DNA of 46,064 bases, taken from Candidatus Shapirobacteria bacterium (GTDB lineage: Bacteria > Patescibacteriota > Microgenomatia > UBA12405). The notes under the pieces are model-generated. The model was not told where the DNA came from and ran no database searches. It saw only the letters and a program-made list of their open reading frames with translations. Shown here one piece after another: positions 6,001 to 37,638 of this stretch (its first letter is position 1; each line of letters opens with the position of its first letter). Both the position numbers and the translations under genes were made by a program. The stretch is taken from positions 1 to 46,064 of the forward strand of contig CAIKAI010000044.1 of NCBI GenBank assembly GCA_903825325.1, given 5' to 3'.

Positions 6001-9000
6001 GGAAAACAGACCTAACTCTTGTTTTCTAGCCAAAACTTGTCGAGCTACCTCCACCACCAAATCATGATCAGATTCCGAAACACCCATTGACTGAAATCCA
6101 ACCCAAAATCTTTTCCAAATAGACTCTTCATTATCCAAATTACTTGATTCAATCCATTTCACTAGGCCACTCACACCATTATAATTATTGTTAAGTACCG
6201 ACATTGTATTACCCAGCCGTACCCAAACCAAATTATAAATCGTCTCTTTTCTTGTTGTCACATCGCTAATATTTATAATTTTACTAATTTCTTGTGTTAG
6301 ATAATTCTCTATCCCCGAATAATCAGCCGAAGCCCAGTCAACCGTTTTATAGATATCAATGGGAATCTTAATTTGCTGTACTTGATTTATCACATCAACA
6401 TAGTTAGAAATTGTTATTGCTTTGTTTTCATTTTTTATTGCCGACCAAGTCCACCTCATTTGCCATGACCCCCATACTTTTTTAATCAACTTAATGTTTT
6501 TTAGACTATCTAATTTCATTTCCGCCGCTTGATAAAAATGGTCATTTCCCACCAATACCGGTGCTAATAAACTAGCGGTTGCTGTTGATAGTCTAAAATC
6601 ACCATCTTTGCCAACATTACTAACTAGTGCATCCCTTATTTCCATTTCTCTACCCTTTAAACTCACTCCCAACACAGCTTTAACTGTTACCAAACCAGTA
6701 TTGACATTCTTTATGGCGATTACATCATTCGCCAATGAATAGATTATCGTCGCTCCAGAATCAGCGGCATTTATTGCCGCCTCAAAACTTTTATTTGTTG
6801 AACTTTGTCGATAATATGGCGACAACTTACTCCTATTATCTTGGGTCTGAGATATTTCAACTTTGCGGGCGAGATTGACAACGGTCGTATTATTTTGATC
6901 CACCTGACGAACGGCATTAACCGCAGTTGGGTTAAGTAATTCTTCCACCTTCTTATCCTCTTCTTGTCTGGCAGTTGGATTCACTTTGTAAGTCAATCTT
7001 CTTAAAGCCATCGATTGTTCTTCATAAGCTACTTGTATTCTCTCCCACACTGATGATGGAGCTACTGGAGTGTTATTTACATTTGTCTTTTCCGTATCTA
7101 ATATTGGTTTGTAGTTTTCTAGGGTTAGTCTCTCTTCTGAAGTTAAATCCTTTCTCGTTTGTAATTGATTGACTCTATCCTTGGTTAATTGGATGGCTCT
7201 AATGGCGGCATCTTTTCGAGCTGATGTTTTAACAATCTTTAATCTTTCGATAGCAATGTCTTTGTTTTGAATTAATTGACCTAACTTATTTAGATATTCA
7301 TGACTATTAACAAAATTTGCCACATTAATAACTAATTGATTGGCTTGATCTACTTGATGCTTTTGATTTAATTCTCCAGCCTGTTTTAACTTGTTGTCAA
7401 CGGTTGTTTGTCGAATTGGACAGGAATCAAAGCCTGGGGAACAATTTTCGGAGCCTTCAATTTTAAATAATGTTCCAGAGTCATATAATTTTTTCCATCC
7501 GAAAGGTAAACCAAAACCAACCTTTCCCTTAATTACCATCCCATCTTTTACCAACTCATATTTTCCATCTACCAACATTACGGTAGCTCCAGTAATGTGG
7601 TTGATGTCTATTGAATCGTAAGGTGAAAGTTTTGCAATTTCAAAATTAAGTCGAACTCCGTTAACATACGTCCAGGGAACTTCATTGTCATCGCCGATTC
7701 CAACAACATTGCCACTATCATCACGATAGATGAAAACTTCATCAATACTACCAATTTTTTCATATTTGTTAACACTAAACGAATTACCGCCAAAAATTGG
7801 CCACATGTTTTTCAAAACAGGTGGGTCTTTGCCGACAGATTTTAATAAGTCCACCGCTAAGTCGCTCCATTCTTTGCGCTTTTTATACAGTTCTCGTATC
7901 ATGTCAGTTGAATAATTTTCTGATAAATTTATTTTCGCATCGACAAATTCTTGGGCTACTTGGGCCAATTTGGTCATAGATTTGATCGACCGAAAATTAT
8001 TGATAATATCTCCAATGGACAATTTAAAACCAGTGATTCCGGTCGCCTCGATTAAGGAGTCAATTTTACTTTGAGTTTCGGTTTGGGTGGCATTTTCTGA
8101 TAAGTCCAAAGCTTGATTAATAAGAACTTTTGTATCAACCAATCTATTGACCAGGATTGGCCATCGAGTTATGGATTCACTCTCCAATATTGCTAAAGCC
8201 ATTTTTTGGTCACCATAGAGAGCAGTCAATTTATTTAAGGCATTAATTGCCGCTGAAATTTGATTTTTTAGCATTTTTCTTAGCTCAGGTGAATTGAGTC
8301 GATCAACAAAAGCTTGATAAACTTCAGGTTCTACATACGAATTTTTGTTATTTATAAAATAAGCAAAATAATCATAGATACCACCATCAGATTCCATCTC
8401 AATTAATGTCGAGGCAACATACTCGTCTGATAAGGTTGCATCGGTTTTGAATGCCACGATTTCATCACGAGCGTTGGCCAAATAATAGTCACTTAATACA
8501 TGAACCAGTTTATCAAGCTCTGGCATTGACGTTGCTTTAGCATCACCAACCAAATTGAGATCGACAATCATAAACAAAGCATTGAGTATGTGTTGTTCCT
8601 CATGAATATAGGTACTCTCCCTTTCTTTTGTTAGACCATGGCGCACAACAAATACCAATCCATTAACTGAACTATCTTTTACATTAAAACCCGCAAATCC
8701 GGCAGTTTGAAAAGCTAAATTCTGATCATCCTTTGTTGGCTTGTTTATCCCCCCATTAATTTTTTCCCAGTTGTAGGCTACGGCATAGTCAGTGTCATCT
8801 CGAGTACCTAAAGCAATTGACATGGGACCAATCCGCACATCAATATCACCAACACTGTCTACCCCAAAATAATCATAAAACATTTTTTTGCCATCATAAG
8901 TACCGTCTACTTTTAGATATTTCTTTGCATTTTCTAATACACGTTTGTGATTTACATAATATTGAAGGAAAATTTTCCCTACTGTAAACAAATATTTGTC

Positions 9001-12000: not shown

Positions 12001-15000
12001 TTTTCCGGTTTTGGCGGTTTTATTGTACAAATGGATTGTTTGGTCGACCACTAAATTACTCCCTACCGTTAGCCCTCTCCGCGTAAACGGTTTACCCTTG
12101 GCCAGTACTTCCTTGACCAAGCCATCCAAAATCGTCAAATTATTATTTTCGAGTAAATCTTTTTTGCTCGCCAGCTCTGCTTGGGATTGAATTAATTGTT
12201 TCAAATTTGTTACTTCGGCTGATGGCACATATTTCTTTTCCGCGTCAGTGGCATACCCCGTCATCAAATTCGCTAATTTTTCTAAATCAGATTGGACTGA
12301 TTGGTAGTTGGGCGAACCCACATATCTATATTTGACCATTTTCAAGATTGTGTCCAAAGCGTCTTTGATACTTTTAACTTTTTGCCTCTGGTCATAACTA
12401 CTATTTTGATCATTTAATTTGTCCAATAAATTATTCACTTCATCAGCATATCTTTTTATTTTTCCATAGTCAGCCAAGCCATTTCCATTATTACTGTTGT
12501 ACTGCATATTACTCACATCATTACCCAGTTTTCCCAATTGATGTGTGTCCAATAGGCTATAGACATTATTAAGGGCAATATATTTAATTCGGCTTAAGGG
12601 CTCATTCATGTCGTAGGAAATTTGCCGTAGGGTATCTTTTAAATTCTGGTTGATTTTATCTAGTTGCACCACCAACAGTTTTACATTGCCCACTACAGCG
12701 TCTTGGACCTTAGTGCCTTTCACCAACTCCAAATCATTTGCCAACTTCCTTAAAATTGCAAGTAACTCATCGATTTTCGATTGTAATTGGCTAATTTTGT
12801 CGGCATCCTTTAATCCGTTCATTTGATCCAAAGATGTTTTACTCATTTGCACCAATTCATTGGCTCTTTCGACTGTCCCCTTGTAACTTTTGAAATTAAT
12901 ATAAATATCCTCCAACTCTGTCAGAGCTTTAACTTTTCTTTCCAACAAGGTTATTTCCCCAACCAAAATGGTTTTTTGTTTTTTGAGATATTGCACATCA
13001 TCGTTTTGATTTTGCGAATTGTCTCGACCGTCTTTAAGAATATTTCCCAAAGCCAGACCTAAGACATTATCGCTTTTATCAGTCACCATATTTTTCAAGG
13101 CCAACCGTCGACCTACCAAAATTTCTCGGATTTTTTGTTTATCTACTTGATTGGTAATCCCCGAAGAATTCAAAATTGTATCAATGTCATCCACTGACAA
13201 ACTATTCAATAAGCTCGCCGCTTGATTTTTAATTTCTTCGATTGTCAAATCTCCAAATAACGCCGCTGACAACGGATTAATATCTTTTGATCGCATTGTT
13301 TTTAATTCGGGAATCGAGTCGGTTGTCAAATCAGTCGCCGTTTTTCGGCCAGTTAATCCCTTAAACAGCAACGATCCACCATGGTCGGTCAGCATTACTT
13401 GACCATTTTTATCAGTTTGCAAATTACCGTATGGGTGTTCTGGACCAGTTCCCACCGCATCCCAATCGAGCAAATATGCTGCCGCTGCAAAATATGGTTT
13501 AGCTTGAGTTCGGTCTACGGCTAGGGTTTGTTTTAGCCCTTCCTCAAAATCAGTCAAGTAATAGACATTATTTCCGTCAGTTAATAATGACCCATTCAGA
13601 GTGGGGATTCCCAGTTTCTTATAAATTTGATTACTAACAAATTCCACTTGCGACTGGACCGGATCCTGATACTGTTTGACATAATATTTCTTGCCAGTAT
13701 ATTTATCCTGATAAGTCCCTCCCTGATTCGTTCCCAATTTTTCTCCAATTTTTTCCAGTCGATCAAAGGTTAACGGGCCATTGGCCAGATCATCAAACTT
13801 CTGTTTTGCTATTGGGTAAATACCCTCCACCAATTTCTTCTTTTCTGCCGCCGAATAACTACCGGTAATAAATTTATTTAATTGCGCTTCCAAGCCAGTT
13901 TGAATGATATTCCATCGTACCTTGGTCAAATCGGTTTGCTCCATCGCATTTTTTACTAGCACATATGTACTCATCCATTCACCAGCTCTGTTCTCACCTA
14001 AAGTGTTAATCACCAACATCGCCAATTCCGAATTACGTCCTCCGTCCTGGTCCGCCTGCACGATTAAATCTGTTCTCAATTTATCTACGTCCTGTTGTTG
14101 GGCCACCACCGTATCTTTTTGCTTAGCGCTGGCAAACTCCATTGGTAGATAGGTAAATTCATCTACCACTCCCGATAATTTGATTGTCTTGGAAATCACC
14201 GAGCTTTCAATTTCATTAAATTGCATTCGTCCTCGCGCCAACTCCGAGATTAACTTATTCAAACTTAAAATTTGCGTCAAATTTGTCGTTATCGGAATCT
14301 GACTATCAACACTTTTCTCCAAATTATTTACACTAATTCGTAAATTTTCCAAATCAGTCCAAGCCTGAGCGTCTCCCGTTCTTAAATGATCCGCCGTTGT
14401 GGCAATTTGTGCACTTAATTTCTTTCCCGTCTCCCCCATTTCTGTCGGATAGTTTTGATTAATATTCTCCACAAATACACCCAAAGTTTCCACCTTGGCC
14501 AATGCTTCACTCATAATTGTCTGTTTACCTTCACTGATCCTTTTTTGGATATCATCAATTCTTGCGAGTATGTTGGTTAGTCCAGTCTTTAAATCATTAG
14601 CCCCATCCACTTCCTCAACCAAACTTATCTGTTGATTAATTCTCTTTTTCCAATTCTCCAAATCGGTCGACAATGCTTCCAAATCGCTAAATGCTTGCTG
14701 TTTGTTTGCCAAACTAGTACTTCTTAAATTGTTCTTTATCTTATTGACCTTTGATTCTATTTCCCCCAAAGACACTGCATTATTAGCTTCTTTTCGCAAT
14801 TCATTGAGAGCATTTTGGGCTCTTATTTTGTCTACTTCTTTCTGAAGCCTGGCTTTATTTTCCGCTTTTGCTTCGGCTAGTGTAAATGCTTGTAACTTCA
14901 ACCTTATTTCTACTGCTGTTGTTAATCCAGCCAAATCAGTCTCCTTCATTCCTGCCTCTAAAGCTGCTTTCTTGGCTGCATCAAATTGCTCTTTAACCGC

Positions 15001-18000
15001 AGCAATATCTTTCTCAATGGTAGCTATCATTGCTTTATTTTTGTCAATTTGCTCCTGTCCAAGATTTAAATCCTCTGCTTGTTTTAGTAAATCCTTGGCT
15101 CGTTGCAATAAGTCCTCCAAATTTGTTTTCTTATTCTTCTCCAAATCAATTATTACTGCTAAACCATTGCTAGCCTCTGTCTTTTGTTTTGCTTCATTCG
15201 CTTGTTTATCGATCAAAACCTGATCCAGAGTCAATTGATTTGGATTAGCCGCCACCGCTACCTCGGCCGCTTTTAATCCAGCCTCAGTTTCCTTATTTGC
15301 TGCATCCATTTCTTGCTTAATTCTGGCTTTAATTGTCGCCACTACTTTATCAATATCCGCTTGGTTCGTGGCACTTTCTAATGCCTGATTCTCAAATAAA
15401 TCTAATTGAGGGTATTTAGAACGAACAGATTGTTTGGCTATACTTAACTGCTGTTGCGTCTCGAATTTTTTTGTTTTCTCCATTAAATTCTTAATATTTT
15501 CTGGCAACTCTCTACCGTCATACAAAACTTTATTATAGAAATTGACTAACTCTTCGAAACTTGTACTCTGAGGCAGATAATCAAATGTCTTCGATCCAAC
15601 TTCTTTTTTGAACGCTGCTATTAATTGGAGTTTTGCCCTTATTTCTACAAATGCATCAATAGATAGAGATTCCTTCAATTTACCCTTATCATTCATGGTA
15701 ATTTTTACAAAATCAGAATAATCGAAATACAAATCAGTCGGTTGATGATAATATCCAAAAATACCCGTCTCTTGATATAACTTTTCAAATTGATCAACCG
15801 CTTCCTTTGCTGTCAGTGGTAAATTGTCACTATAACCATTTAGGATTTTTTCCAATCGTCGATTTCGACTTGAAATATCTATTTTTTTGTTAGTATCTAT
15901 CACTACGATATCAGTGACTTTATTAGTTAAGAGATCGACGGTATGATCATCGAGCTTCATTCCTGAATTTATATACAACTCCGTAATTTTAGCTTTTACA
16001 TCGTTACGGTTTGAATTTTCATTAAAGTTCATTTCCAGAACGCTTTTTAGAATGTCACCAAAACCTTTTGTTGCCACTATCCAGTCTCCTTTATTATTCA
16101 ATCCCAGTGATCTGGCCGCCTCACCCAAAAGTGCCTCGCTGTTAGCATCTAAGGTCAAAGCATTCTTTATACTTAGCTTACTTGTCTCTATTTCATTAAG
16201 TAAAGCGTTATAGTCGTTTTTACCCATTACCCGACCCAATACATTTGGCCATAAAGTTAGTGGCTGTCGATCGAACATCGCCACGGCCGCCTTTACTCCA
16301 TATTTCATTTGCGCAACTCTGAATTCCTCAATTGCTCTAGTCACTAACTGTTTATAATAATCCCGTCTTTTTTCCAGCACCGCCTTCATATAAGGGCTAT
16401 TTATCCTCTCAATTGCCTCAGAGTAATAATCATACAAACCACCATCTGCTTTTTTCTCAAGCAAATAAGCTATTAATAATTCATCACTTATGTCATATCC
16501 CGTCGACAAATATGCAATCAACTCATTTTTTACGCGTGGGTAGATATAGTTTTCTTCCAACATCGTCACCCAAGAATAACTAGTCACATCCCCACTTGAA
16601 CCAAGTTTTATCTGACCATCCGTCCCAATTAAATTATTTAATTCAGTTATATTAAACCAATCCAACAAACTATTTAGTGAATGCCGATGTTCATGATCCG
16701 CTGCGCTTGGTGTGTAAGTTTTTTGTCTAAATCCCACTATGCTAATTCGTTGACCCTCAAATTTGATCGTACTATTAAAACCTCCGGAATAGTCAATTGC
16801 ATTTTGTAATTGCTTACTAATATTGTTCAGATTGGTCACTCGTCCAAAAGTACGCATTGTAATAAAGTCAGTATCATTATCAACTATAAAATCAAAACCC
16901 AATAAAGCGACTTTCACAACGACATTCCCTTGCGGTTTAACAAGATACATATCTTCAAACAGTTTGTTACCATCGATGGTCATTTCTCCGTTTTGATCTT
17001 TTGTTTGATATTGTTCTTGTAGCTCAGCTACCTTAGCCCGAGTTAATTGATAATATTTGAACATCGACAGAAGGTCTTTCCAATAGTTGTCCGGCAAACC
17101 CAACACTTGTGAATTATTTACAAATATTTCCCGTAATTTATTTTCTGAAATATCCGGAGTTGCTTCAATTTGCGCTACAATTTCTGCTTCCAGGGAGTTC
17201 AAAGCCGCTTCATGCAGGGCGTAATTCTGTCGATAATCAGCCATTAACTTCAAATTGGTCGCCAAATCTCTTTTGCTTGAACTGCTTCTAATAGCTGCTA
17301 ATTCCTTTACCGGATCAAAAAACCTCCGGATTAGCTTGCCATTTACCAACTCCACTTCTGTCTTAACCCCATTCTCATCAACTAAATATAAGGTCCTCGT
17401 TTCATTTAAGTTGAATTCCAATTCTTTCCCTGTTAGTTGTTTACCCGTAGCTTTGTCTACAATTGATCCTGTCTCAGCCGGTAATAACACCACACGACTC
17501 CCAAATATTTGAGTCTTTGCCAGTGTTACTCCAAATACTTCCAATGAATACTCCACCCCAACCCCTTCATCTGTCAATGTCAAAGTCGGACTTACATAGA
17601 AAACACCATGATCATCTGCATACGATATTAACATCGATGTCCCTACCACAAATTCCTTGGCAGAACTCATCACCCAAGCCCGATTGGCTTCGTCCCAAAC
17701 ATCAATTGTTAACTTGTCAGACATCATCTTACTATTTACCAACTGATATTTTCCATCAGTGTTCTTGACAAACTTAAGCGTATCCGACCCGTAGTTTCCA
17801 AAACTCAACTTCATCCATTTAAATCTTTTTTCCTGTTGCATTTTGGCTATCAAAGCCACATATTGTTTAACTAGCATATCTCTGACAACTTTCGGAATAG
17901 GCTCTACACTATCACGGGTCAATGATTCAATATATTTATCAATCGCCGGACCAATATACGATGTACCGTCGTCTACATCGGCATAAGGTAGAATCTCCAT

Positions 18001-21000
18001 CAATTTTGCCTCTGACACCACCGAATTTGGCGACTGTCGATCAGTTAAGTAAATTAATTTGTAAGCCCAATCATTCAGTTCGTCCACTTGCCACTGTTCA
18101 GTAATGGTGCTCGGGTCAATATTTATTCCCACTGCCGCATATTTAGCCATCACTTGTTTATTATCCAAAGCCAGACCCAATTTTAATTGAGTTGGACTAT
18201 TTTTTGCATCCGCTGCCACCGCCACCTCAGCTGCTTTTAATCCATCATCAACTTCTTTTTTCGCTGCTGCTTTTTCTCTGGCAATTCTGGCTTCTATTGT
18301 GGCCGCTACTTTATTAATTTCATTTTGATTCTTAGCATTTTCTAAAGCTTGATTCTCAAATAAATCGAGTTGAGGGTATGTAACCCGAACCGTTTGTTTG
18401 GCATTATCAAGTTGTTGTTGTTTTGCTTCCGCTGCAATCCGGCCATCAATTATCTTTATTACATCATTAATTTCCTTCTGATTATTAGCTTCAGATAATT
18501 GTTGACTTTCAGTGTCGGTCAATTTCACCTTTTTATCACCATATTTCTTCAACACGTTGTCTTTGGCATCCTTAAGTTGTTTAGCCTCAGCTTCTTGTTT
18601 TGCTTCTGTGGCTAATTTTTCGACTGCGGTTTTTTCATTATTCAGGATTTTAAATATCTGTTGACCGTTTCTAAAAAATATCAAATACCCATCAGTAGTC
18701 AAAGTATATTTACCGTACATCAACCCAGCGCCTAAGCCACGATTTTCATAGGTTACTTCAACTGTTGGCAACGAAACTTCATCACCACGGCCTACGTTTT
18801 TAATCGATACGATCACACCATTTGTGTTTCTCTTTATTGCTAAATCAACATTTCTTTCCATTTCTGGGAAATATATTTGTTGAACTTCAACAGATCCTCT
18901 CTGATCAATTATTCCCAGCTTATTCCACCTATCCAATCTAAACTGTTTAATTGGGGCTAAATTATCCAACAAAAATGTTATATCAACGTAACTCGAGTTA
19001 AAAGGCATAAATAAATTACCAGCCACATTTGCTATTTGATTCGAATATTCAATCGGTTTGTTTGTCAAAACTCCACTATTTATAACCTCACCGTAAACAC
19101 CAAAACTGGTAACTTTTGCATCGGCAAAATATATTCTGTCAACCCAAACTCTTCCCATATTGTCATATCCCATTACCCACCGCACCGGCCTACCTTGCCA
19201 CACAGTTTCATATATTTCCAAGGTTACCAAACCTAATAATGTGTGATTTGTTGTTTCAGTCTTTACTGGCCCTTTACTAAAATCTGGTACAAAGCCATCC
19301 GGATACTTTATCGCTGACAACTTATTTCCATCAACTGGCACTTTATTGTAAGTCCCGGGCATGTATTGTTGAACATCTGCCAACGCTCCACCGTCATCAT
19401 ACATTTTTACTTCTCTGTCCCACTCAGAAAGTGTGAAATTCACTACATCATCATTTTTTAGTTTGAAATAATTTAGGATATCCTTATTAACTTCGATCAT
19501 TTGTTCACTTTCTTTACCTGATAGATAGTCGATGATGTCTTGAGTGGGTTTAGTTGTCTGAGTATAATGTGCTCCTTTTTCAAAAGCGCCACTAGGAGTC
19601 ATCCAAGGCGACAACCTCCAACCACCAGAACTGTTACTTTTCCAAAATAATCTTGGTTGTAACTTGCCATTAACTTCAATAAAAGCTACCGACAATAACC
19701 TGACTTTTTCAAATTCGTTGGTCGTTTCGCTTGTCATCTTCAATACATTTGGGAACATAAAATACGTATCCCTACCCACTGTCAAAACCTGAGTCGGGAT
19801 CAAATTTGGATCAGATAACATATTCCGAACAGTTGCTGTTTGCTTGGTATCAGTTCTAGCATTTTTGAAAAATTCACTTTCCGCTTCAGTTAAATTTCGA
19901 AGGTTTATTTTTGTAGCTGACTCATCAGCTCGGTTTTGTGTTGCTGCTACATCCGCAACTTTTTTCCGCGCCACCAATTGATTCACTCCGGCAATTGTTT
20001 TAGTTTTATCCAACTGTGTCTGATCTACGCCCAACGCTAGGGCATCTTTTTTGGCTTGTTCAAAATCAGCCGCTAATTTTTCTGCCGCAGCTTTCTTATC
20101 AGCCAAACTTTGATTATAGACAACAACTAAATTATCAATTTTGCTGACATCCACACCAAGATTTCTTCCTAAATCTGCCATTTTCTGGGCATTTGCCAAG
20201 TTACCTTTGTTGACAATCGTTATTCTGTTTACATAATCCGTAACAGTTTTAATATCCGTTTCTTTTTGAATTTCCGCGGCGGTTTTTTGCAGTGCTTTTG
20301 GCACTGATCCATTTAATTCCGCCAATTCAATATCATTTTGCAATTGGGCCACCACTGCTTCAATGCCTCTATACCCAACCCCCAAATTTTTAGCTCTGTC
20401 CAAAATGCCCTTTGCCTCAACCAGCAAAGCTTTTTTATCTGCACCACTTGCTTTTAATTTAACCGTCATCGCCGCCCAATCACTTTCGACTTTATTTTTA
20501 GCTTGCATTACCAATAAACCATTTGTCAACTCTTTTAGGGTCGTCATTTCCTTATTTTTGAAATCATCAGTTGCCAATACCGACAAATCTGATCCGGTTA
20601 AATTGCTTGACCCGGCAAAATCAATGGCTATTAGTCTTTTACTACCATCTGCCATGGTTTGTACCCTAATATTTGACGGATGCAATTGGTTGGTCAATTT
20701 ATAATTAGAATTTGTTGATGCTTCCTTAGATGTGTTAAATAAATCACCATGTGCCGTACCCGTTATATCATGTACTTTTTGCATTTCCTCGATAAAGTCA
20801 TCAACCATTTTCTGGGTTAAATCACCACCTTCAGCTAAGTAGTTGCTTAACGCCACCGTATCTTCAAAATATTCTTGTTGGAATCCGCCCAAAACTAAAC
20901 CTTTAAAGGTTATAAATGGTGCCTTGCCCCCCCATTTTTGATAAAACTCCAGTTGGAATTTGTTATCTTCGTACACTCCTCCGGCAATATACTCATCCAA

Positions 21001-24000
21001 AATCTGCCCTTTAGGCAAAATTGGTTTTATAAAGATTTTTGTCAAAGTCTTGGTTATTTTATTTACAAAAGTATTGGCATACGATCCCGACGATCCTTTT
21101 TCCCCGTACAATGGTGTCGCCACATAATCCGGTATGTTCAAGGGCCAGCCCAACGGCACCATCTTGGCGACCTCATTGGCTTTCTGCAAATATAAATCTT
21201 TATCCGTTTGGCTCGCTGCTCGAATAATCTTGTTTAAATAGCGATTATAAACTTGGGCCACAATGTCATAAAAATATTGTGGCTCAGCTGTTTTAGTAAA
21301 TAAGCCATCTTTTTCCCATTGCTCTAAGGTGTCTAATTGCGAGTTAAATAGTTCGTCCGAATCCTTCGTTGTATTAGTCACGTATTTCTTCGCCCCTAAT
21401 TTTACGGCCCTAGCCGCCACGTCCGCCGCACTTACTACCACCGGCGGTGGGTTATTAACTCGACTTGCGTTTGGCACTGTCGCCGTTGAATTATTTGTTG
21501 TCGTTCGACTTGCGTTTGGCACTGTCGCCGTTGAATTATTTGTTGTCGTTCGACTTGCATTTGGCACTGTCGACAATCCCGCTTGGTAGTCGATTAACTT
21601 TTTATTTAAATTATCAATAATAGTTTGATCAACTCCGTATCCTTTAGCATCATTTATTAACTGCTTAACTACCTCCACATTGCTCGCGTCTACCGTCGTT
21701 ATTGTGGTTATTTTTGACATTGCCGCAATCCTCGCTCTCAACTCCGGAGTTGTCCCCGTTACCACAAATCCCGCTCCAAACATTTTTCTCCCCTCTCGAG
21801 CCAATGCTACTCGGGCAGTTATCTGAGCATTGGTTCCCGTCACCATAAAGTCTGCCCCAAATTCAGTTTGAGTATCTTTAATCAGTTGATCCCTGGCATT
21901 TAATGGTTGAACTCTGCTGCTATTTGGTATTGTCGCGGTCGAGTTAAATGCATCAATTTTCTTTTGCAAATCAGCAACCACATTCGGCTCAACGTGATTA
22001 TCCGTCGCCTTTTTCAACAACGCCGTCGCTTTAGTCATCGCTGCCGCTTCTGAAATTGGGTCCAACACTGCGATATCGTAAGTAGTTTTTAATTGAGTAT
22101 CAGTAATTCCCGACAAATTTACGTTTTGATACGCCGATCTAATTACCGTCATTAATTCCAATCGTTTGGAGGCTATCGCTGCCGTAAAATTATCCCAATC
22201 AGCATTTGTTTGAATACTTGGCAAAACATCCGTTCCAAACAAAGTTTTATAATTCTCCTCATTAACCATTCTGACGCTCGAAGTTTTCGCCGGCACTCGA
22301 TCGTTGGTTGGATTATTAGCCTCCCCCATTCCTACATTTCCCGCTCCACCATTATCAAATGCATCAATTCTATTTTGTAAATCATTTTTGATACTTTGAT
22401 CTATTTGATAGCCATTAGCACTGGTTAACAGCTTTTTTGCCTGAGTCACATTGGCCGAGGTTATCGGTCCCAGTGCTGCGATATCCGCCACATTTTTTAG
22501 TTGGACTGTTGTTAAATTAGCCGCATTAACATTTGGGTATACCGCTTTTATTTGAACTGCCAATTCGTCACGTTTAGCACTAATATCCGCCACCATTTGA
22601 TTCCATGTTCCATTGTTCATTGCCACCGGCTTGGGTACCACAATTCCCAAAGCCCGGGCATTTGATTCTGTTACCATCCTCGCTCCACTATTTACTTTTG
22701 GTACCAAATCGGTCGCAGTGTCAACCGCAACCGACGATGCTGCCGCGCTCCCCGAATTGTTAGTTGAAGTTGAGTTCGAACTTGCCACCGTCGTTGATTC
22801 CCCACCCATACCCCGTCTATTTTCGGTTGGGAAATCTTCAGCTGTGTATCTTGAAGCAATCGCTTTTTCCAACTCCACTAAATTCTTCGCCTCCGCCACC
22901 GAACCTTGAGTTTGATTACTTCCACCATTTTCAAAAGAAATCCCAGTAGTTGGATCAGTCGCCATCAATTTCTGATCGGGACTCCATTTTGTTTGGAAAT
23001 CACCATAAGCTTCCGATTTTCCCAAGCTGTCTAGTTGACCCTTCAAATCAGTGGCTAACTTTTGTAGCTCTGCTTGAGCACTTTCCAAAGTATTTTTTAC
23101 CGCCAAGGCTCCACTACCTGGAGTGTCATTTATCATTTGGTTTCTCAATTGAGATTCCTGAGTGAAAACCGCCAATTTATCGTCATAGTATTTATTAATT
23201 TCTGCCAGCTTCGCTTCTCTAGCCGCCGGATCGATTCCTATTTGTCCCTCAACTGCCTTCACTGCCAAACTTCGAGCATCAGCAATCGCCTCTCTCGACA
23301 TATTCTCAATCGCCTTTATGACTGTTTCTTGTCGAGTTTCAGCGATCGCTTTCGCCTGATTGGCTTCATATAATGCCTTTGCCTGGGCTGTATTAATATT
23401 TGGATCGGCTCCGACAATGAAATGATCCGGTCCATATAATTCTGCATTTCCATATTGGGGATTATCCCGCAAAAAGGTTCTGATATCGGCATCAAAGTTA
23501 TCCACTGAAGGCGGCTTACCCTCGTTGGTCATCACCCTCACAATTTCGCTATATAATCTATCCCGACCAGTACCTTGAATCGCCGTGTCCATGGTGGTAT
23601 TAGTGTCATTAATTTGGACCCATCTGGCATTTTTATCTACTGCCAAATTTAACCCGGTGTCGCGGTGTTGAATTTCCAACACATAATCAGCCGAGCTCTT
23701 AGCCATCCCCTCACCATAATTTGCTGCCACATAGTTTTTGTAGTCGGTGATATTGTTAAAAGTTTTAATCGATCCATCTTTGAATTTAATGGTAAAAGTA
23801 CTCGCATCGGCATCGATAATATGGTGGTCCCTAACTCCCTTATATTGTTCATCAATTGCCTTTGAAACCTGGTCAGTCATTTCTCCAGTCGCCGTATTCA
23901 AAATTCTCACATTCTCGTAAACTAGCTGAGCCCGGTCGAGCTGAATAATTTTGTCCGCCAACACATCCATTTGACTACTTGCCGGCTCTCCATTTCCATT

Positions 24001-27000
24001 AGCTCTAGCCTCCGCTCGTCCTCGAGCTGCTTGCATCTCTGCATCAAACGCTCTGCCATCCATCCCATTTTTTAAAGCAAAAACTTCATCCATCACTTCG
24101 GTAGTTAGTCTCTGGTATTCATCCCGACTAATAACATCTTTCGGAATCAAACGCGCCACCGCCTCTAAAGCATTTGCCACTCCGGTTACGCTTCGAGGTT
24201 CAATTAAAGGTGGGGCATTACCAATCTGCACTGCATTTTTCATATCCCCATAACCTTTTGTTATCAGGTCTGGAGTTGCATCCAAAATAATTACTTGACC
24301 TTCAGACTTCGATAAAAATAATTGCAAACCATTTGTTTGATTTGACTGGTCATAAAATTTGACACTCGCCAAATCTAGTACCGGGGCCTCTTTTCCTGCC
24401 CCCATGGCCGCATTGTACATCGCTTTCCCCGTTTCCTCCGCCGCTAAAATCTCCAATATTGATGACTTGGTTTGACCAGTTGTCGACCCTTTGTTTAATA
24501 TATGGCTCGAACCATCTGCCGCATAACCGTAATCAACCGTCGGCACTTCCGCCAATTGACCCAGCTCCGTATTTACCACATTTAATCTGGTTACCAAATC
24601 GCCACCGCCCAAGCGGTCTAGTATATCGGGGCGTAATAATATTTCTCTAAAATCAACATCACTTAAGTTTCTTAACGTTTCTTTTAGTGGTGAATTGCTA
24701 CTCTCGACCGTTTCCCGATATATCCTGGTAATGGTTGCTTCGTCCATTGGCAGCTTTGTTTTTGGATCGAACACATCAACAAAACTACTCTTACCATCTT
24801 TCAAATTTTGCATCACCTTATTCCGTAAATCCGTTATTGCCTTTTGTTGCAAAACCTCGCCTCTCAATGCCTGAATCTCGTCATATGTCATTCTTAAAGT
24901 GGTATCTGCCGCCGTCATTGTCAACAAATATTTAGCTTCGCCAATGTTTGTCCGATAATTCTTCCCCGCCTGGATATATTTGCTACCTTCATCGGCAATT
25001 ACCGTGGCCTTATCAAATATGTCTGCCAACAATTTTCCGTTATCCCCCCCGGCTTGAATTCCAAAATGCAGATCCGAGTCGGAAATCATTACTGACACTT
25101 TTCCTTTTTGTAACAGCACCTTAAATTCTTCCGTCGTCATTTCAACTGGAGTCACCTTGCCGTCAATCAACACTAATTTTCTCCAACCAATATCTTTATC
25201 AAAAAACACCCTGTCTATCCCCGCATCGGCATACATTGTATGAAAAGACTCATCAACCGCCCCATTTCGGAAGTTAACGTCAGCAAATATTTGCATCACC
25301 GGCTTACCCACATCGGCGTACAACAAAGTCATCGCTTGGCTGGCCACCAAACTTTTTCCGTAGCCGGTTTGTGCCGACAATACTACCACCGGATTATTGC
25401 TCGACGCCACCCCCACAAAATCGGCCAATTGTAGTTCTGTAAAAGCAAAGTTTGATCCCTTATAAGTCTTACCAAACGTTTCTACCCTGGCCACCACCCG
25501 ATTTAATTCATCAATCGCAGTTTTATAATCAGCCAATTGCTTCGGGTCAGTTACCACTTTTTCATTTACTCTCAATTGATTACTCCCCGGCTCTCTCACA
25601 AAAAGACTGCCACTTTCCGCCATCCCCACCAATGGTTTACCTGTGTCCTTAGCCGCTTTAGTCGCCTCCGCCAAAATCGCTTTTGAAGTATCCGACACGA
25701 CCACATTCGCCTCCGAAAATTTTGGCAACAAATTTGTGGTTGTATTCGATGAAAATAGGCTCTGAATTGCCTCACCAATTCTCCCCAATATGCCTTTCGG
25801 TGCCGCTGCTTCTGCCTCAGCTAAGTTTTTCAAAGCTAAATCATTTGCTGCTTTGGCCTCGTTCACCACATGCTTGGCTGCGTCTACTTCGCTCCCGGTA
25901 GCGTTTTTCAAGGCAGTTTCTGCTTTGGCCAAATCAGCGGCAGTTTTTGCCGCATAAGAATTAGCCGCATCAGCAATTTTTTGGGCTTGTTTTGCGGCTT
26001 CACCCGGGTTAAAAATATTGATGATGGCATCAACAATTTTTAGATTTTTTGGTAATGCTGCATTTGCCTCTGCCAGCGATTTATTAGCCGCATCATAAGA
26101 CATCTTGGCATCATTCACAGCTTTATTCGCCGCCGCCAGATCTTTTACCTCAATCGTTTCTCCGGCGGCTTGTCTGTCTTGTAATTCTGTCAAATTTTTC
26201 ATCGCCTCATTTAGGGTGGTCCGAGCATCATTCGCCTCAGCTGTGGCCACTGCAATTACTCTTTGAACCATGCTTCCCGACGAACTGGCTGGGACCACTA
26301 CATTGGCAATTCCTTCTGCAATTCGGCTCAGTAATCCTGGTGGTGTGGCTAATGCTTTGGCCGCGGCTAAGGTTTTATTAGCTTGAGCCACTAAGTCTTT
26401 CGCCAATGAAACCTCGCTCTCGGCATTAAATAGTTCGACCTTGGTCGACACCTTCAGGGTTCCGTTAGCTTTGTCAGTCTCAATCCTAGCATTGACCTCT
26501 GCTAGCTTTTCCTCAGCCTGCTTTAAATTAGATTCTGCACTGGCTTTGGCTGCTTCAGCCGAAACTACCACCTTGGTCGCCCGCGAGGTCACCGATTTAT
26601 CCGGATTAAATATATTTGACACTGCCTCCCCTAACCGTGCCGGCAAACTTTTTGCCAACAACGTTTCTGCCTGTTTTACCCCAATTTGTGCCTTCTCATT
26701 TGCTGTCATAGCTTTGTCCACTGCCTCCAAAGCCGACTTGATCTCCGCTGGTTTAACCGTTTCGCCGTTTTTCTGTTTGACGAGCAGATCATCTAAAGTC
26801 TTTTGGCTACTATCCAAGTTCGTTTTTGCTTCTTCCGCCTTTGCCTTGTTTAAATCGACAATTTTCTGCGCTTCCACCGCTACCGGATCCTTGGGTACAA
26901 TATTGGCGATATTCTTCCCTACCTGAGCCACAAATGCTTCAGCCACCTGTTGTACTGCATTTTTTGTCACCGGGACTACTGGTGCTTTTGCTGTTTCCGC

Positions 27001-30000
27001 CGCTGGTTTAGCACTCTTGGCTTTGGCTAATTCGGCGTCCAAAGCCGCCTTCGCCTCCACTTGTTTTTGATTAGCCAAATCTAGCTTGGCCTGAGCATCC
27101 ACTAATCCTTGGCTAACCGATTCCGGTACCTCGCCTTGAATTCTACTTGCTACTTCCGCCGAGGCCTTATATCTGTCTAAATTTTCCTGAGCCTGGACCA
27201 ATTCCGTTTTAGCCGTCTCCACCGCCGCTTGTTTTTGGTTCAAACTGGCTTCCGCCGTTGCCTTAGCACCTTCCACTGCCAAACTCGGAGCAATTTTCCC
27301 TAACTCGGCATTGGCCGCCGCCATTGCTCTTTGGTTAGTTTCTGCCAACTTCTGAGCGCCATTATATTCTGTCTGAGCCGCAGTCAAGATTTTTTTATCG
27401 GGATTTAATTTATTTGTCGCGCTTTCAAGCTTTAACTGCGATTCTACTAACTTCGTTAATCCAGCCTGATAATCAGCCGCCGCCTTGGCTGCCTGATTGG
27501 CCGCCTCCAAAGCTGTGTTAACTTCGGGCAACTTTGCTTTATCGGCCGGATCAGTCGAACTAGCTAATTTATCCGATAATGCCTGTAAATCAGTTTGCAA
27601 CTTAACCGCCTTCTCTAAAGCCGTTTTGGCTTGACTAGTGGTTGTTTCCACCAATTTTGTATTTAGGTCGGCCACCTTTTGATTCGCCGCTTCAGCCTTA
27701 GCTTTCGCTTGCTCTAGTGCTACACTGTCTTGCTTACTTTCGGCCAATTTGACCTCTAACGCCGCTTTTTCTGCTGCCGCTGCCGCCCCAGCCCTTTGCG
27801 ATGCTTGATATCCAGGGTCAGCAGTTAGCCTGTCCAATTGGCTTTGAGCGGCTTTTAATCCCTCTTCAGCTGACCTGACCGCCACCGAAGCTTCCAATAC
27901 CGCCTTTGGATCTCCCTGCAATTTCAAGCTGTCCAATTTACTTTGAGCCTCATCATAAGCCTTTTTCGATTGATTAACCGCGGCCGTAGCTTCAACCACC
28001 GGCGAAAGATTACTTAACTTTTGCGATGCTGCTGTATGCGCCTCCATTGCCTTACTCAAAGATTCCTGAGCTGCAGTTAATTTTGCCTGCTGTTCGGCAG
28101 TTACAGTTGATCCTTCTGTTACGAATTTGCTTACTTCACCAAACCTTTGGGCTGCAATATTTAAGTTTGCTGATGCACTTTCCAGCGATAATATCGCTGA
28201 AGTTTCTGTAATCGCCGCTTTAGCTTCGGCCACACTTTTAACCACTTCCCCGTTCGCCGCCAACCCAGTTAATCCCATGACACACATTGATTGCGAATCA
28301 ACATCCTGACTTAAGCCTTTCGAAATCGCTCCCGAGCAAGCGCTAATCACAAATAAATCCGCACCCGCCGCACTAACGATTGCTGATCCTGCCGAGCCAA
28401 CTTTAGCCGCAGTGTCTAATACCGCCATCGCCCCCGCCATGTCCGTTCCAGTATGACTCGCCAACGAATCAATTACTGCCGTCGCCCCCTTCGCCGCCAA
28501 TCCTCCCACCATTCCCCCGAGATGAAGCATTTGACCTGCCGCCATTGCCCCCGTCGAAGCACATTCTAGCTGAGAAGCATTTGGATTTGAACAGGTATCC
28601 ACTGCCATTTTTCCAAAAATTATTGACCCATTTATTGAATTAGCCACCTGAATCCCGGTTGCTACTGCCCTCGCACCATTAGCTAATGTTGCCGCCAACT
28701 CAGCACCCTGTGAGGCATACGCCACTAAATCTCCGGTTTCACTCACTATTTCTCCCGCTTTTGCAATCGTACTCAAGACTCCAGCTGCTTGACCCAAAGC
28801 GCCAGCCACCGCTCCCGTCCCCATCATAGCTGAAATAACTACCGTAGTGGTACAAGATTCCTGAGTAATTCCGGCCGTACCCACCCGACTACAAGTGTCA
28901 ATCGAGTTACTAATCATTGATGGTAAAAATAGTGCTCCTGAATATGTTAACCATAAAGATGCCACCACCGGAGTTGCCGCTCCGCCCGTACCAATAATTG
29001 CTGCCACCGAACCAACTGCTGCCGCTGCTGTCAACACTGGAGTAGCGATATCCCCTGCCACGCCCGCATAACCTTGAGTTAACAGACTAAGATTATATGA
29101 ATTTACTCCCGACATCGCCATATCACTTTGCGCCGTGGAAATTTTTTCCGACTCCCGATAGAACCGACCATTCGTATAATCATTAAAATTGATCCTCACA
29201 TATGTTCCCAAATCTTGCTTTCGGGTATCAAGCATTTGTCCTTCCTTTTCCCAAGTTGTTTTTCCCGCCGCAATGTCGGCCACCACTTGGTCATATCGAC
29301 CCTCATTAGTTACCGTTCGAATAATCGGCGCCTCAGCCTGAAACTTGGTTTTTTCTGCCATCAAATCAATCGCTTTTACATTCGGATTGCTCGACAATTT
29401 GATGATTGAGGCCATAGCGCTAATTTCAGTACTACAATTTTTTCCACCAAGTTGGGTGCATCTTTCCATTGTTAAAAACTCATCCTCTGAATGAAATACT
29501 GTCGCTTTTGCATTCAATGAGTTAGGTGTCAACGGATTCTTTGAGAAAGCATTCATATTTGTACTAATCGCAAACTGAGTGCATGACGTCAGGTTACTTT
29601 CACCCGCCGAAGATGAATTTTTTTTGCTTAAACAATCTTTGACGTTTTGGTCAAACATGGCTTGATCAATTGCTTTGGTCTGAGCTGATATACCCACCGT
29701 CGCCATATCATGCACGGCAATGTTCGCCTGTCTTTCAATTGACAACTTCGGGATTTCCGTGTTCGGATCAAAACCAGCCGCCACCAGCAAATCTTCTGGC
29801 TTGGCAAAAGAGGCGCATAAACTCGGTTTATCAGCACACACTTTTTCATTAACCAAATCAGTGTTTCCATTTAGATAGTTATTTTGCAACACCGCCTTGA
29901 TATAGTAATCAATTACCGGGACATCTTTGTACAATGGCAAATATTTTTGCACCAATACTGCATCGGATAAACTTGAACATTTATCCGCTCCCATATCCTT

Positions 30001-32181: not shown

Positions 32182-32188
32182 TAAGTTT

Positions 32189-32845
32189 TTACTGTATTTC
32201 AAAAACAACTGTTAACTTTTTTTCTACTTTAACGGTCTCAAAATTGGTATAAAATCCGGGTTTTTCGTTTACCGAACCTCCCAAAATTCCGTTATCATCG
32301 GAAATTGAAATTAAATTACCCACATTTTTACCAGTAACTTTAGCCAGCACTTCAGCTTTAACCCTAGCGTCTTTAATTGCTTCAGTGCGAACTTTCTCCT
32401 CAACATTAGCTGCATCTTTTGGAATAAAAGTTACTGCGCTAATTGAATTGGCCCCGTTAGTAAAAAGCAATCTAATCAGATCACTCGTTTTCGACACTGA
32501 TTTCGACTTAATGTTCATCGCACTCACCATAATAAATTTACCGTCACTTTGCGGCGATACTTGGTAGAAGCTCTTATTAATTTCGGCATCTTTTCCCATG
32601 GTGTTTAGGGTCAAATCCGTCAACCGTAACAAATTAGCTTCGCCACTCGCAATTGCATCACCTGCCGACGCTCCCGAACCTGCGGCCGTCACCACTAACG
32701 ACACTGAATCAACCGGCACCACCATTGATCCGTCACCCGTTACACCTACAGTTGTTTTTATCCTCCCCAACCACAGGTAACCTCCGACTAATAACAATGC
32801 CACCAACACCCCGGTTATCCAGGGCTTATTTTTAATAAAGTCCAT
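32189..32845 (-). CDS. SIMPL-domain (DUF541-like) envelope protein with N-terminal TM/signal
   Basis: 218-aa track ORF with hydrophobic N-terminus WITGVLVALLLVGGYLWL. SIMPL-like pattern: VGVTGDGSMVVPVDSVSLVV, then ISAVTFIPKDAANVEEKVRTEAIKDARVKAEVLAKVTGKNVGNLISISD. Its stop is 8 nt upstream of the giant-gene GTG. Confidence 0.65.
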   Translation of the reverse strand: MDFIKNKPWITGVLVALLLVGGYLWLGRIKTTVGVTGDGSMVVPVDSVSLVVTAAGSGASAGDAIASGEANLLRLTDLTLNTMGKDAEINKSFYQVSPQSDGKFIMVSAMNIKSKSVSKTSDLIRLLFTNGANSISAVTFIPKDAANVEEKVRTEAIKDARVKAEVLAKVTGKNVGNLISISDDNGILGGSVNEKPGFYTNFETVKVEKKLTVVFEIQ

Positions 32846-35691: not shown

Positions 35692-37638
35692 TTACTCATA
35701 CTTCAACGCGTTCAGTGCTGAGATTTGGCTCGCCCTCTTGGCCGGGTACCACCCCGTTATTACCCCTAAAATCAATGACGCGGCTAATATCCCCACCGAG
35801 AACCATCCATTCATTACAAATAAGTTCTGGCCGATTTGGGTGCTGTTAAACACTAGCCGATTTAGGATCCCTCCGATCACCCACCCCAGTCCTAGGCCGC
35901 CTATTCCTCCCACTCCCAGAATTAACACTGCTTCGGTCAACAACAATCTAGTTACATCCACATTGCTTGTTCCCATACTTTTCATCACGCCGATTTCCCG
36001 TGTTCTTTCCAATAACGACACTGTTAAGGTATTAAACATTCCTAGCAGCGCCACCACTAAAGCAATCGCCCCAAATGACCCCAATAAAAATCTAATAATC
36101 GCAAATAATTTGGCGATTTGCGCCAGCGTATCCACTACACTCCGTGTCGTCAACCCCATCGATTGAATTAACGATCGTACTTCTGGCAGTTGCTCTTCGG
36201 TTTTAGCCATCACCCTTACTAGTGAGTATTCTTTAATTCCTAAACTTTCCAAATCAGCCCGCGGCACCAAAATCACTGGCTTCTTAATGTCGTTGTACAC
36301 TCCTACCACGTTATATTTTTCCGGTTCCGACAATACCCGACCACTAATTTGTGGCAACACACTACTGGTAACTAAATACGACACCTCCACCTCCGACCCC
36401 AAAATCTTTTTATCGTCACTATTCCAGGCTTTTACCAATGCTTGGCTGACGATTATTTCTTTTTTATTCCCCTGCCACACTTTTATGGTCACATTATTAC
36501 TCACGGTATCCGTTTTCTTTTTGTCTTCCAACAACGTTACCAATTGCGCCGATTGAGTCGCCGTCCCCAATACCATCCCCTGACCACTTTCCAACATCTT
36601 TTCAATATCTTTGTCCACGGCCGACAATACATTTACGTTTTTCATATCCAAATAAACTTCTTTTTCTTCCTTAACATCGGTATAAACACCATCGCCCAAA
36701 CTGTCTCTAATTGGCATTTTTGCTTTGATCCACTTGCCTTGCAATTTCCCGTTGTTGGTTGCCACTCTTCCCAATCCTGAACTATCATCATAAACTCCAC
36801 CCCAGGCCACCTCACCCCGATAACTGTCTAAAATTGATCCGCGGATCCAACCCATCATCTTTCCCGTTGCCGCTGGTGCGTCGTAGGCGGGAATATATGT
36901 CTCATCTCGCAATCGAAAATCAATCGTCTCCGCTGGCATCGCCGACTCAGTCGCCACTCCGGCCACCTCACCTATTGTTTTTTGGGTAGCGTCTTTATTC
37001 AACAACTCTTGAATATCTGCCGTCCCATCATATTGTTTATCCGCTTCTTTTGAAAAATTTTTACCTGTCACAATTTTTATATCCGCCATCGCCAAATAAT
37101 TATTTGATAAGCCTGTTACCACCGTATCCACTTTCGAATTTTTATAAATTACCTGCCCCGCCAAATTAATCGCTTGATCCACTTTTTCGACTCCAGGTAT
37201 GACTTTGATTTTTCCCAAGACATCACTATTAATTTTTACCTTACTTGATTCCGAAGTTACCTCGGCCACTCGCAAGGCATCCGGCCAAATTATTTTTTGT
37301 GTCACCACTCCTTGCAGTCCGTAACCAAAAGACACTAACAACACCACTGCCCCAATTCCCACCGCCACCCCACCCACCGTCACCGCCATTTTTGATCGAC
37401 CTTTTACCAAGTTTCGATAAGCCAACCACATTGTTTGCTTCCAAGACAAGCTCCCCGACTGTGGTTTAATAATTTTTCCCAAATACATGAAATTCTCTTT
37501 AATTATCCGAATATGGCTTTTTATATCAATCAGTCTTCGATAATCATATCTAACTATACCAAAATACATCTTTTTCCCAATTTTCATCACTATTTTTTGG
37601 GTTTTGGTCTTTAGATTTTGGAGTTTATTAATTATCAT
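35692..37638 (-). CDS. MacB/FtsX-family ABC transporter permease with a large extracytoplasmic domain
   Basis: 648 aa. TM1 is MAVTVGGVAVGIGAVVLLVSFGYG, followed by an extracytoplasmic region of about 400 aa. C-terminal FtsX domain: LLERTREIGVMKSMGTSNVDVTRLLLTEAVLILGVGG. ATGA overlap with the ATPase gene at 37635-37638. An internal start (MYLGKII) cannot be excluded. Confidence 0.85.
   Translation of the reverse strand: MIINKLQNLKTKTQKIVMKIGKKMYFGIVRYDYRRLIDIKSHIRIIKENFMYLGKIIKPQSGSLSWKQTMWLAYRNLVKGRSKMAVTVGGVAVGIGAVVLLVSFGYGLQGVVTQKIIWPDALRVAEVTSESSKVKINSDVLGKIKVIPGVEKVDQAINLAGQVIYKNSKVDTVVTGLSNNYLAMADIKIVTGKNFSKEADKQYDGTADIQELLNKDATQKTIGEVAGVATESAMPAETIDFRLRDETYIPAYDAPAATGKMMGWIRGSILDSYRGEVAWGGVYDDSSGLGRVATNNGKLQGKWIKAKMPIRDSLGDGVYTDVKEEKEVYLDMKNVNVLSAVDKDIEKMLESGQGMVLGTATQSAQLVTLLEDKKKTDTVSNNVTIKVWQGNKKEIIVSQALVKAWNSDDKKILGSEVEVSYLVTSSVLPQISGRVLSEPEKYNVVGVYNDIKKPVILVPRADLESLGIKEYSLVRVMAKTEEQLPEVRSLIQSMGLTTRSVVDTLAQIAKLFAIIRFLLGSFGAIALVVALLGMFNTLTVSLLERTREIGVMKSMGTSNVDVTRLLLTEAVLILGVGGIGGLGLGWVIGGILNRLVFNSTQIGQNLFVMNGWFSVGILAASLILGVITGWYPAKRASQISALNALKYE
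37614..37626 (+). repeat. Third exact copy of the 13-mer gattttggagttt, at the ABC ATPase/permease junction and inside the annotated 5' end of the permease ORF
   Basis: Exact 13/13 match to the murB-upstream copies, in the same plus-strand orientation. Confidence 0.8.

Follow-up and report, generated by a model that had tools for sequence, protein, structure and literature searches.

Which enzyme, if any, is formed by two HExxH motifs that lie some 8 kb apart within one reading frame of an ultra-small bacterium? This question is raised by contig CAIKAI010000044.1 of a Candidatus Shapirobacteria bacterium (assembly GCA_903825325.1), 46,064 nucleotides of DNA that were analysed at full length and that we refer to as the window; it makes up the entire contig C44 of a genome of 1.25 Mb with a completeness of 92%. 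A sequence-only reading of the window had described the two motif regions as paralogous modules with a gluzincin-type layout that fit no known family and that might be carried as cargo. The analysis described here identifies both modules as domains of one giant protein and as members of an unnamed family that is built on a known catalytic plan, has no detectable kin and is found almost only in ultra-small genomes of candidate-phyla-radiation (CPR) or Patescibacteria type. Judging from the sequences, we take the domain to be a new gluzincin-like zinc hydrolase, probably a peptidase, of which both copies are apparently intact and would serve as trans-acting modules of a giant exported protein; we put the probability of this reading at roughly 0.55.

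Two homologous modules in one giant protein

The giant protein contains the pattern HE..H at exactly two sites, HEHRH and HEEQH, which are spaced by 2,697 residues (8.1 kb); because His makes up only 0.64% of its residues, just 0.027 HExxH motifs would be expected by chance. When the contexts of both sites (400 aa to either side) were compared by BLASTP, copy A (HEHRH) and copy B (HEEQH) proved to be 25% identical over 382 columns with E = 1e-23, which bears out the paralogy proposed for the two modules and their distance of about 8 kb. Two details of the sequence-only reading required correction: the homologous unit common to both copies comprises about 375–400 aa rather than roughly 270 aa, and the modules are not separate genes but domains of one and the same protein. 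A whole-protein self-comparison of the giant revealed several internal duplications, with the HExxH module present only as one pair. We read the split between copies A and B as ancient and not as the outcome of a recent tandem duplication.

Module A spans positions 16129..17331 of the window (aa 4960–5360 of the giant; minus strand, as for all features of the modules given here) and is matched by the profile of the family at nt 16213–17331 with E 1.7e-70. Its HEHRH motif (16681..16695, aa 5172–5176) supplies the invariant columns H213, E214 and H217 in the numbering of the module, of which the two His residues are predicted zinc ligands and the Glu is the predicted catalytic residue. Downstream follow KNELIAY (16510..16530, aa 5227–5233), whose invariant Glu 5229 we predict to be the third ligand of the metal, DGGLYDYY (16423..16446, aa 5255–5262) with the invariant Tyr 5259, and finally the invariant Trp 5320 together with the conserved Arg 5326 (16231..16251); an invariant Asp precedes the HExxH motif (16867..16869, aa 5114, module position 155). 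In case of module B (8038..9240, aa 7657–8057; family profile E 2.8e-84), which is nearer to the family consensus than copy A, the corresponding features are HEEQH (8590..8604, aa 7869–7873; the same as the consensus), RDEIVAF (8449..8469, aa 7914–7920; invariant Glu 7916), DGGIYDYF (8365..8388, aa 7941–7948; invariant Tyr 7945), the invariant Trp 8016 with the conserved Arg 8022 (8143..8163) and the invariant Asp 7807 (8788..8790). The homologous downstream motifs that had been named for both copies are hence present, and the conserved Glu is indeed invariant; only its position had been misjudged, as it follows the first His by 57 residues in copy A (E270) and by 47 residues in copy B (E260) and not by about 40.

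Models of both copies were built with AlphaFold2 and are confident: the copy A model (401 aa; 41-sequence alignment) exhibits a predicted local distance difference test score (pLDDT) of 86.8 and a predicted template modelling score (pTM) of 0.84, and the model of the copy B core (269 aa; aa 7760–8028, nt 8125–8931) reaches 90.0 and 0.85. The order of elements is the same in both, namely a beta-hairpin, two helices, a second beta-hairpin, the HExxH helix (residues 208–223 in the copy A model and 102–127 in the copy B core model), a loop and a long helix with the invariant Glu (residues 251–276 in copy A), after which the GGxYDY loop leads into a C-terminal helical bundle, where both the invariant Trp and the conserved Arg reside; the full module, as seen in the copy A model, additionally starts with long N-terminal helices. 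The location of the Glu on the next long predicted helix after the HExxH helix holds for both models at the level of sequence and secondary structure, and the invariant Asp of copy A is placed where the helix following the first beta-hairpin starts. Upstream of the HExxH helix, the predicted beta-hairpins and a conserved SGG/GF motif agree with the beta-rich region and the Gly motif noticed earlier from the sequence. A sheet, a backing helix, an active-site helix and a "glutamate helix" constitute the gluzincin plan of thermolysin-type and minigluzincin structures, and the element order predicted for both modules appears compatible with zincins.

The family, its genomic settings and related giants

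A profile of copies A and B was searched against 1.84 billion cluster representatives (clusters at 50% identity) and identified 540 representatives at E<=1e-3, 226 of them at E<=1e-10, mostly as full-length matches. The majority of family members are standalone proteins of about 390–470 aa that align end to end. Of the 150 representatives listed, 18 comprise at least 1,000 residues, with the module no more than about 160 residues from the C-terminus in 7 of the 18, and HExxH is present within the module in every one of the 150. In a scan of one genome per species, the family was found at 35 loci, and wherever the Glu motif could be recognised downstream (28 loci), the matched open reading frame (ORF) contained HExxH. 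The histidines on which the sequence-only reading had leaned are thus conserved, and the Glu of HExxH, the downstream Glu and the Tyr of GGxYDY are equally unvarying in these homologues. An alignment of 133 modules together with the two window copies (numbering of copy A) exhibits the invariant columns D155, H213, E214, H217, E270, Y300 and W361, with all seven residues kept in both window copies, whilst P133, G135, G184, A273, L290 and R367 are conserved to at least 90%. The resulting family signature is HEEQHA[IL], about 50 aa, KDEILAY, about 25 aa and GG[LI]YDY, with the order fixed.

The hosts to which a name is attached belong to Saccharibacteria, to Peregrinibacteria and to many groups of Parcubacteria type, and within the phylum the distribution is patchy (22 of 400 genomes, and 1 of 60 near relatives of the source genome). 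Four loci (L031, L032, L037 and L038) are titled Gammaproteobacteria or Pseudomonadales; as the genomes concerned measure 0.8–1.3 Mb, these labels look doubtful, the hosts are presumably ultra-small bacteria as well, and we did not count the loci as an occurrence outside this group. A strong family match from the phylum search (G113:C8:24599-25767; E 1e-85) is broken by 2 TAG codons and 1 TAA codon, and this copy is either decayed or belongs to a genome that reads TAG/TAA codons differently.

The standalone members bear few marks of export. A transmembrane (TM)-like segment occurs in 4 of 77 short members, and the N-termini that we viewed are hydrophilic and charged, with no segment resembling a signal peptide. 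Their last 20 residues carry a mean net charge of +3.2 against +0.8 in background ORFs, with a C-terminal net charge of at least +4 in 52% of standalone members against 9% of the background; the isoelectric points are near neutral and uninformative. This basic C-terminal tail, which is Lys/Arg-rich in P0009, P0021, P0157 and others, may be an export signal or may just be part of the last helix.

The standalone gene sits on the same strand within many different conserved operons, with tiny or overlapping gaps. It is found between rplN (L14) and rplX (L24) of the ribosomal spc operon with overlapping gene ends (L117:3001-4230, on one metagenome contig), between pheS and pheT (L118:2953-4332, on a second such contig) and directly upstream of ddl, the gene for D-Ala-D-Ala ligase (L004:5968-7997, L010:5953-8047, L037:764-3263 and L038:6004-8479; stop and start overlap in two of them). 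Other copies lie downstream of secY (L013, L021, L022, L023), after nusA (L009), with a PMT-type glycosyltransferase on either side (L005, L109), with a Bac_transf sugar transferase on one side and an epimerase on the other (L110), ahead of a release-factor gene and ftsEX (L113), next to class-I tRNA synthetases (L027, L116), in settings that resemble type IV secretion systems (T4SS; TrbL/TraC-like in L115 and TrwB-like in L112) and beside a restriction/OLD-type island (L111). As rplN-rplX and pheS-pheT are neighbouring pairs in nearly all bacteria, the copies at these two sites must be derived insertions, and the combination of a patchy distribution with variable insertion points suggests an accessory, horizontally moving gene and not a core housekeeping function. 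A conserved partner or immunity gene was not found, with any one neighbour common to at most 4 of 26 loci. Cell-wall genes are recurrent neighbours (Ddl downstream at 4 loci, a MurD-like ligase downstream at 1, L034, and glycosyltransferases at 3; VanY in 2 giants). For Ddl and the MurD-like ligase this could mean a connection to peptidoglycan precursors, which does not extend to the remaining loci; we keep the cell-wall link as a mere lead because other loci represent ribosomal, aminoacyl-tRNA-synthetase, release-factor, NusA, RNase III, T4SS-like and defence contexts.

In the window, the family is instead part of a single minus-strand ORF (32208..1) of 10,736 codons with zero stops that runs off the contig end; its C-terminus falls past the contig edge, and the true length exceeds 10,736 aa. 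An N-terminal TM anchor belongs to a Cys-rich first part of about 1,500 aa (28 Cys or 1.87% in aa 1–1500, nt 27709–32208, against 0.86% genome-wide), and the next approximately 9,200 aa, which carry the enzyme modules, are almost free of Cys: aa 1501 to the end (nt 1–27708) contain 7 Cys per 9,236 residues (0.076%), an 11-fold depletion, and three CSPGFxSC motifs account for 6 of these 7. Besides both HExxH modules, the giant possesses two Ser/Thr kinases and a VanY-type cell-wall peptidase, with Pkinase and VanY domains detected by Pfam within its last 1,936 aa. The idea that the modules are carried as cargo holds loosely in that they are enclosed in a giant multi-enzyme protein; they are internal domains of it, though, and most of their relatives are standalone proteins lacking export signals. 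A second very large minus-strand ORF (38318–46063, >2,581 aa) approaches the other contig edge to one base and is followed downstream by a MacB/FtsX-type ABC transporter pair (35692–38321).

Each HExxH module of the giant is bracketed by a pair of repeated linkers. Module A is flanked by R1a (18154..18420, aa 4597–4685) and R1b (15202..15456, aa 5585–5669; both on the minus strand), which are 64% identical; these Gln/Ala/Lys-rich repeats of 85–89 aa, with the pattern QQQL..AKQ.VR..YPQLDLFENQALE..., are distinct from the CSPGFxSC linkers, which enclose the kinases as well as copy B. The latter comprise about 175 aa, are 48–50% identical to one another and open with CSPGFxSC: R2a (10327..10854, aa 7119–7294, minus strand) starts with CSPGFSSC upstream of module B, R2b (6940..7461, aa 8250–8423, minus strand) starts with CSPGFDSC downstream of it, and the third copy R2c (4231–4764, minus strand) precedes the second kinase unit. 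Directly after R2a and upstream of module B lies one half of a weak internal repeat (9982–10326, aa 7295–7409), the other half of which is found at 20008–20340 (aa 3957–4067; 28% identity, E 2e-5).

In the family tree, copies A and B fall into a clade of six with the modules of P0004, P0018 and P0070, which are TM-anchored giants, and of P0001 (Shimodaira–Hasegawa-like approximate likelihood ratio test 98). The modules of this clade contain 0–1 Cys each, compared to a median of 2 in the rest of the family, and the otherwise conserved Cys of "LYFRC" has disappeared from them; in our reading the clade is a subfamily of long standing that became adapted to export and supplies modules to giant multi-enzyme proteins. 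The giants P0004, P0018, P0028 and P0070 are laid out like the giant of the window, with a Cys-rich stalk followed by a body that is poor in Cys apart from a few closely spaced pairs. P0004 also carries VanY, and the related giants otherwise share little besides the HExxH module; neither CSPGFxSC nor the R1/R2 linkers occur in the other giants with the module. Upstream of copy A, a module of about 325 aa with no assigned function (18940–19914, aa 4099–4423) is 38% identical to aa 3801–4134 of P0018 (E 2e-63) and represents a second module common to both giants.

Candidate chemistry and competing explanations

From the residue pattern we infer metal binding and peptidase chemistry along the following lines: the two His residues of HExxH and the invariant Glu that follows 47–57 residues on, on the next long helix, would hold the metal, the Glu of HExxH would activate a water molecule, the invariant Tyr of GGxYDY, possibly together with the conserved Arg, would stabilise the transition state, and the invariant Asp could support one of the His ligands. 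With regard to substrate and location of action we infer that the modules may serve as hydrolytic "tools" acting in trans within a multi-enzyme surface or attack protein, since both copies keep every invariant residue inside an anchored, Cys-depleted and presumably exported giant that also contains kinases and VanY.

Several results weigh against this assignment. Pfam, NCBIfam and PHROGs, run against both modules and 43 members singly, gave scattered chance matches and no peptidase family, and sequence searches of the PDB by phmmer and hmmsearch with single sequences, a full-module profile and a core-only profile returned only noise from coiled-coil, T-cell receptor and designed-repeat proteins. 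The claim that the modules belong to no known family therefore stands, and it is precisely because known family models fail to recognise the domain that a new family with a gluzincin-type layout can be proposed. In keeping with this, the 86 members returned by an annotated collection (11 + 75) have 0 precomputed Pfam domains and are called "hypothetical protein" where they are named at all, and a literature search for the motif string HEEQH yielded nothing relevant. At the level of the fold, Foldseek returned no significant match either for copy A (best E 0.15 in the PDB and 0.047 among the viral structures of BFVD; TM-score <0.25) or for the copy B core against the PDB (best E 0.44, TM-score <0.25), and zincins are absent from the top 50 PDB matches of the latter, whilst zincins predominate among those weak matches of copy A that have a name (4l7a, lethal factor 1j7n, MATCAP 7z5g, an M34-like phage protein, IrrE and SprT-like). 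The HExxH helix, the Glu helix and the order of elements predicted for the modules agree with the gluzincin-type layout, and a zincin fold is a candidate for the domain.

Profile-profile comparison with hhalign employed alignments of M48, M78, M41 and M3 from CPR genomes as references; the AAA+ domain of FtsH and alignments in reversed order served as controls. The best match was obtained with M3 (score 28.9, P 0.016) over 47 colinear columns that lead from SGG through a strand ending in N to HExxH, and the alignment to M41 likewise falls on the HExxH region. These scores lie marginally above the reversed controls (28.9 against <=24.4), which is a further point against the assignment; the AAA+ negative control scored 12–16. 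The probability of a match to M48, M78, M41 and M3 was at most 2.8%, a failure that says little because the established zincin families detect each other there at 0.2–63% and thus also miss one another: the result is compatible with a zincin relationship and does not have the power to prove one. Finally, since most standalone members lack a signal peptide or TM segment, the native setting of the family may be cytoplasmic, and the role of the module in the exported giant is then an extrapolation.

Much of this could also be explained by a metal-dependent hydrolase of other chemistry (amidase, esterase, phosphoesterase or nuclease) with a non-zincin fold, in which HExxH...E would be convergent and which would be no peptidase at all. 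Models of high confidence with no recognisable zincin neighbour and the missing profile link to peptidase families speak for such an enzyme, as do the basic C-terminal tail and the heterogeneous contexts, many of which involve envelope genes (ddl, MurD, PMT, Bac_transf, epimerase) or translation genes and none of which is specifically proteolytic. We nonetheless regard this explanation as unlikely: an HExxH helix, a Glu on the helix that follows it and a Tyr that never varies represent a specific gluzincin peptidase signature, the order of secondary-structure elements fits zincins, the named weak structural matches of copy A are zincin peptidases nearly throughout, and mutual detection by hhalign fails for known zincin families, too. 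That the domain is instead a pseudo-enzyme, serving for scaffolding or binding without catalysis, or that the motif is a fortuitous match, could be argued from the deviation of copy A at both x positions (HEHRH versus HEEQH), yet seven invariant polar or aromatic residues persist in an active-site-like pattern across 43 aligned members with an identity to copy A of only about 20%, both copies keep them, and the two HExxH sites observed for 0.027 expected both stand in homologous contexts; we deem such an explanation very improbable indeed.

A further possibility concerns the target of the modules, which might be cis-acting processing proteases that cut the giant at the bracketing linkers and free its enzyme modules, much as proteases of viral polyproteins do, or the autoprocessing domain of multi-effector toxins. 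The repeated linker pair around each copy (R1a/R1b with 64% and R2a/b/c with 48–50% identity) would suit this role, and there are precedents in the literature: processing by embedded peptidases has been proposed for the giants of Omnitrophota (bioRxiv 10.1101/2023.11.21.568195), and Aravind and colleagues have proposed autoproteolytic toxin release by an associated MPTase (bioRxiv 10.1101/2025.01.14.632903). Most family members, however, stand alone at about 400 aa and contain nothing that would need processing, the absence of the CSPGFxSC and R1/R2 linkers from other module-bearing giants weakens the idea of self-processing, and the position of the module near the C-terminus in 7 of the 18 large proteins is one that is usual for an effector and not for a processing enzyme; we consider cis-processing improbable. 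Our doubts are of the same degree for a more far-reaching proposal, namely a CPR-specific, horizontally mobile effector hydrolase with a non-zincin fold and a convergent HExxH...E that is wedged into essential operons and would reach partner cells by two routes. One route would be taken by the standalone proteins, with no signal peptide, a basic C-terminal tail and some copies in T4SS-like loci, and the other by the module as a cargo that is free of Cys and carried by giant exported proteins; genes of the standalone type would meanwhile persist inside essential, highly expressed operons (rplN|rplX, pheS|pheT and upstream of ddl).

The preferred assignment, a gluzincin-like hydrolase acting in trans, is of wider interest. 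CPR/Patescibacteria account for much of the diversity of bacteria and spend their lives attached to other cells, and most of their proteins, giant surface proteins included, have no assigned function. The family, which numbers at least 540 clusters (50% identity), has a clear candidate for its active site, is described by no database model and resembles no solved structure; it offers an enzymatic handle on the function of giant CPR proteins and is at the same time a patchy accessory gene that is found repeatedly inside core operons. Should the predicted activity prove true, a new family of peptidases would be established, possibly along with a structural variant of the zincin plan that is new as well; should the target be peptides of the host or of the cell's own envelope, it would bear directly on the interaction of episymbiont and host.

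Comparison with known systems

Among known enzymes, the gluzincins of MA(E) (thermolysin M4, neprilysin M13 and the M48/M56 minigluzincins) resemble the family most in layout: the HExxH helix is predicted to follow a small beta-sheet, the candidate acidic third ligand is a Glu on the next long helix at a spacing of 47–57 residues, which lies inside the M13/M48 range, and an extra invariant Tyr completes a residue set that is fully conserved. Unlike M4, M13 and M48/M56, to which it has no sequence, profile or fold match, the family exhibits a core to which long N-terminal helices add about 100 residues on one side, whilst a C-terminal helical bundle of similar size (about 100 residues) on the other carries the invariant Trp and conserved Arg, and its occurrence is, as far as hosts are named with confidence, limited to CPR-type genomes. 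A second comparison concerns M3 (PepF/thimet oligopeptidase). M3 was the best of the four zincin profiles, both families are largely helical, and the standalone members of the HExxH family have no export signals; however, the third-ligand Glu of M3 follows HExxH by about 25 residues and not by 47–57, M3 proteins comprise about 600 aa, no match to PF01432 (M3) was obtained in the library scans, and no M3 structure was returned by Foldseek.

At the level of the whole protein, the closest parallels are the Omnitrophota "Archaeovorins" and the "MPTase" polymorphic-toxin and polyvalent proteins. Their peptidase domains (C39, S8, M36 and Tox-MPTase/MPTase-PolyVal) match existing models, which the HExxH family does not, and the latter also differs in having neither an immunity gene nor a conserved partner gene; in the literature on giants of predatory and episymbiotic ultra-small bacteria, embedded peptidases are reported, none of which is of the HExxH type. 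What connects the window with those systems is the placement of an enzyme module in a membrane-anchored giant together with cell-wall-active and signalling domains. As regards the architecture of polymorphic or multi-effector toxins, which may apply here, the giant of the window has an N-terminal anchor that is followed by a Cys-rich stalk and several enzyme modules in a row, and its C-terminus lies past the contig edge. Peptidase modules of giants such as the Archaeovorins have been interpreted as serving attacks on a partner cell or the processing of the giant itself (bioRxiv 10.1101/2025.01.14.632903; 10.1101/2023.11.21.568195; PMC3482391), and it is with the former of these two roles that the trans-acting modules proposed here would be aligned.

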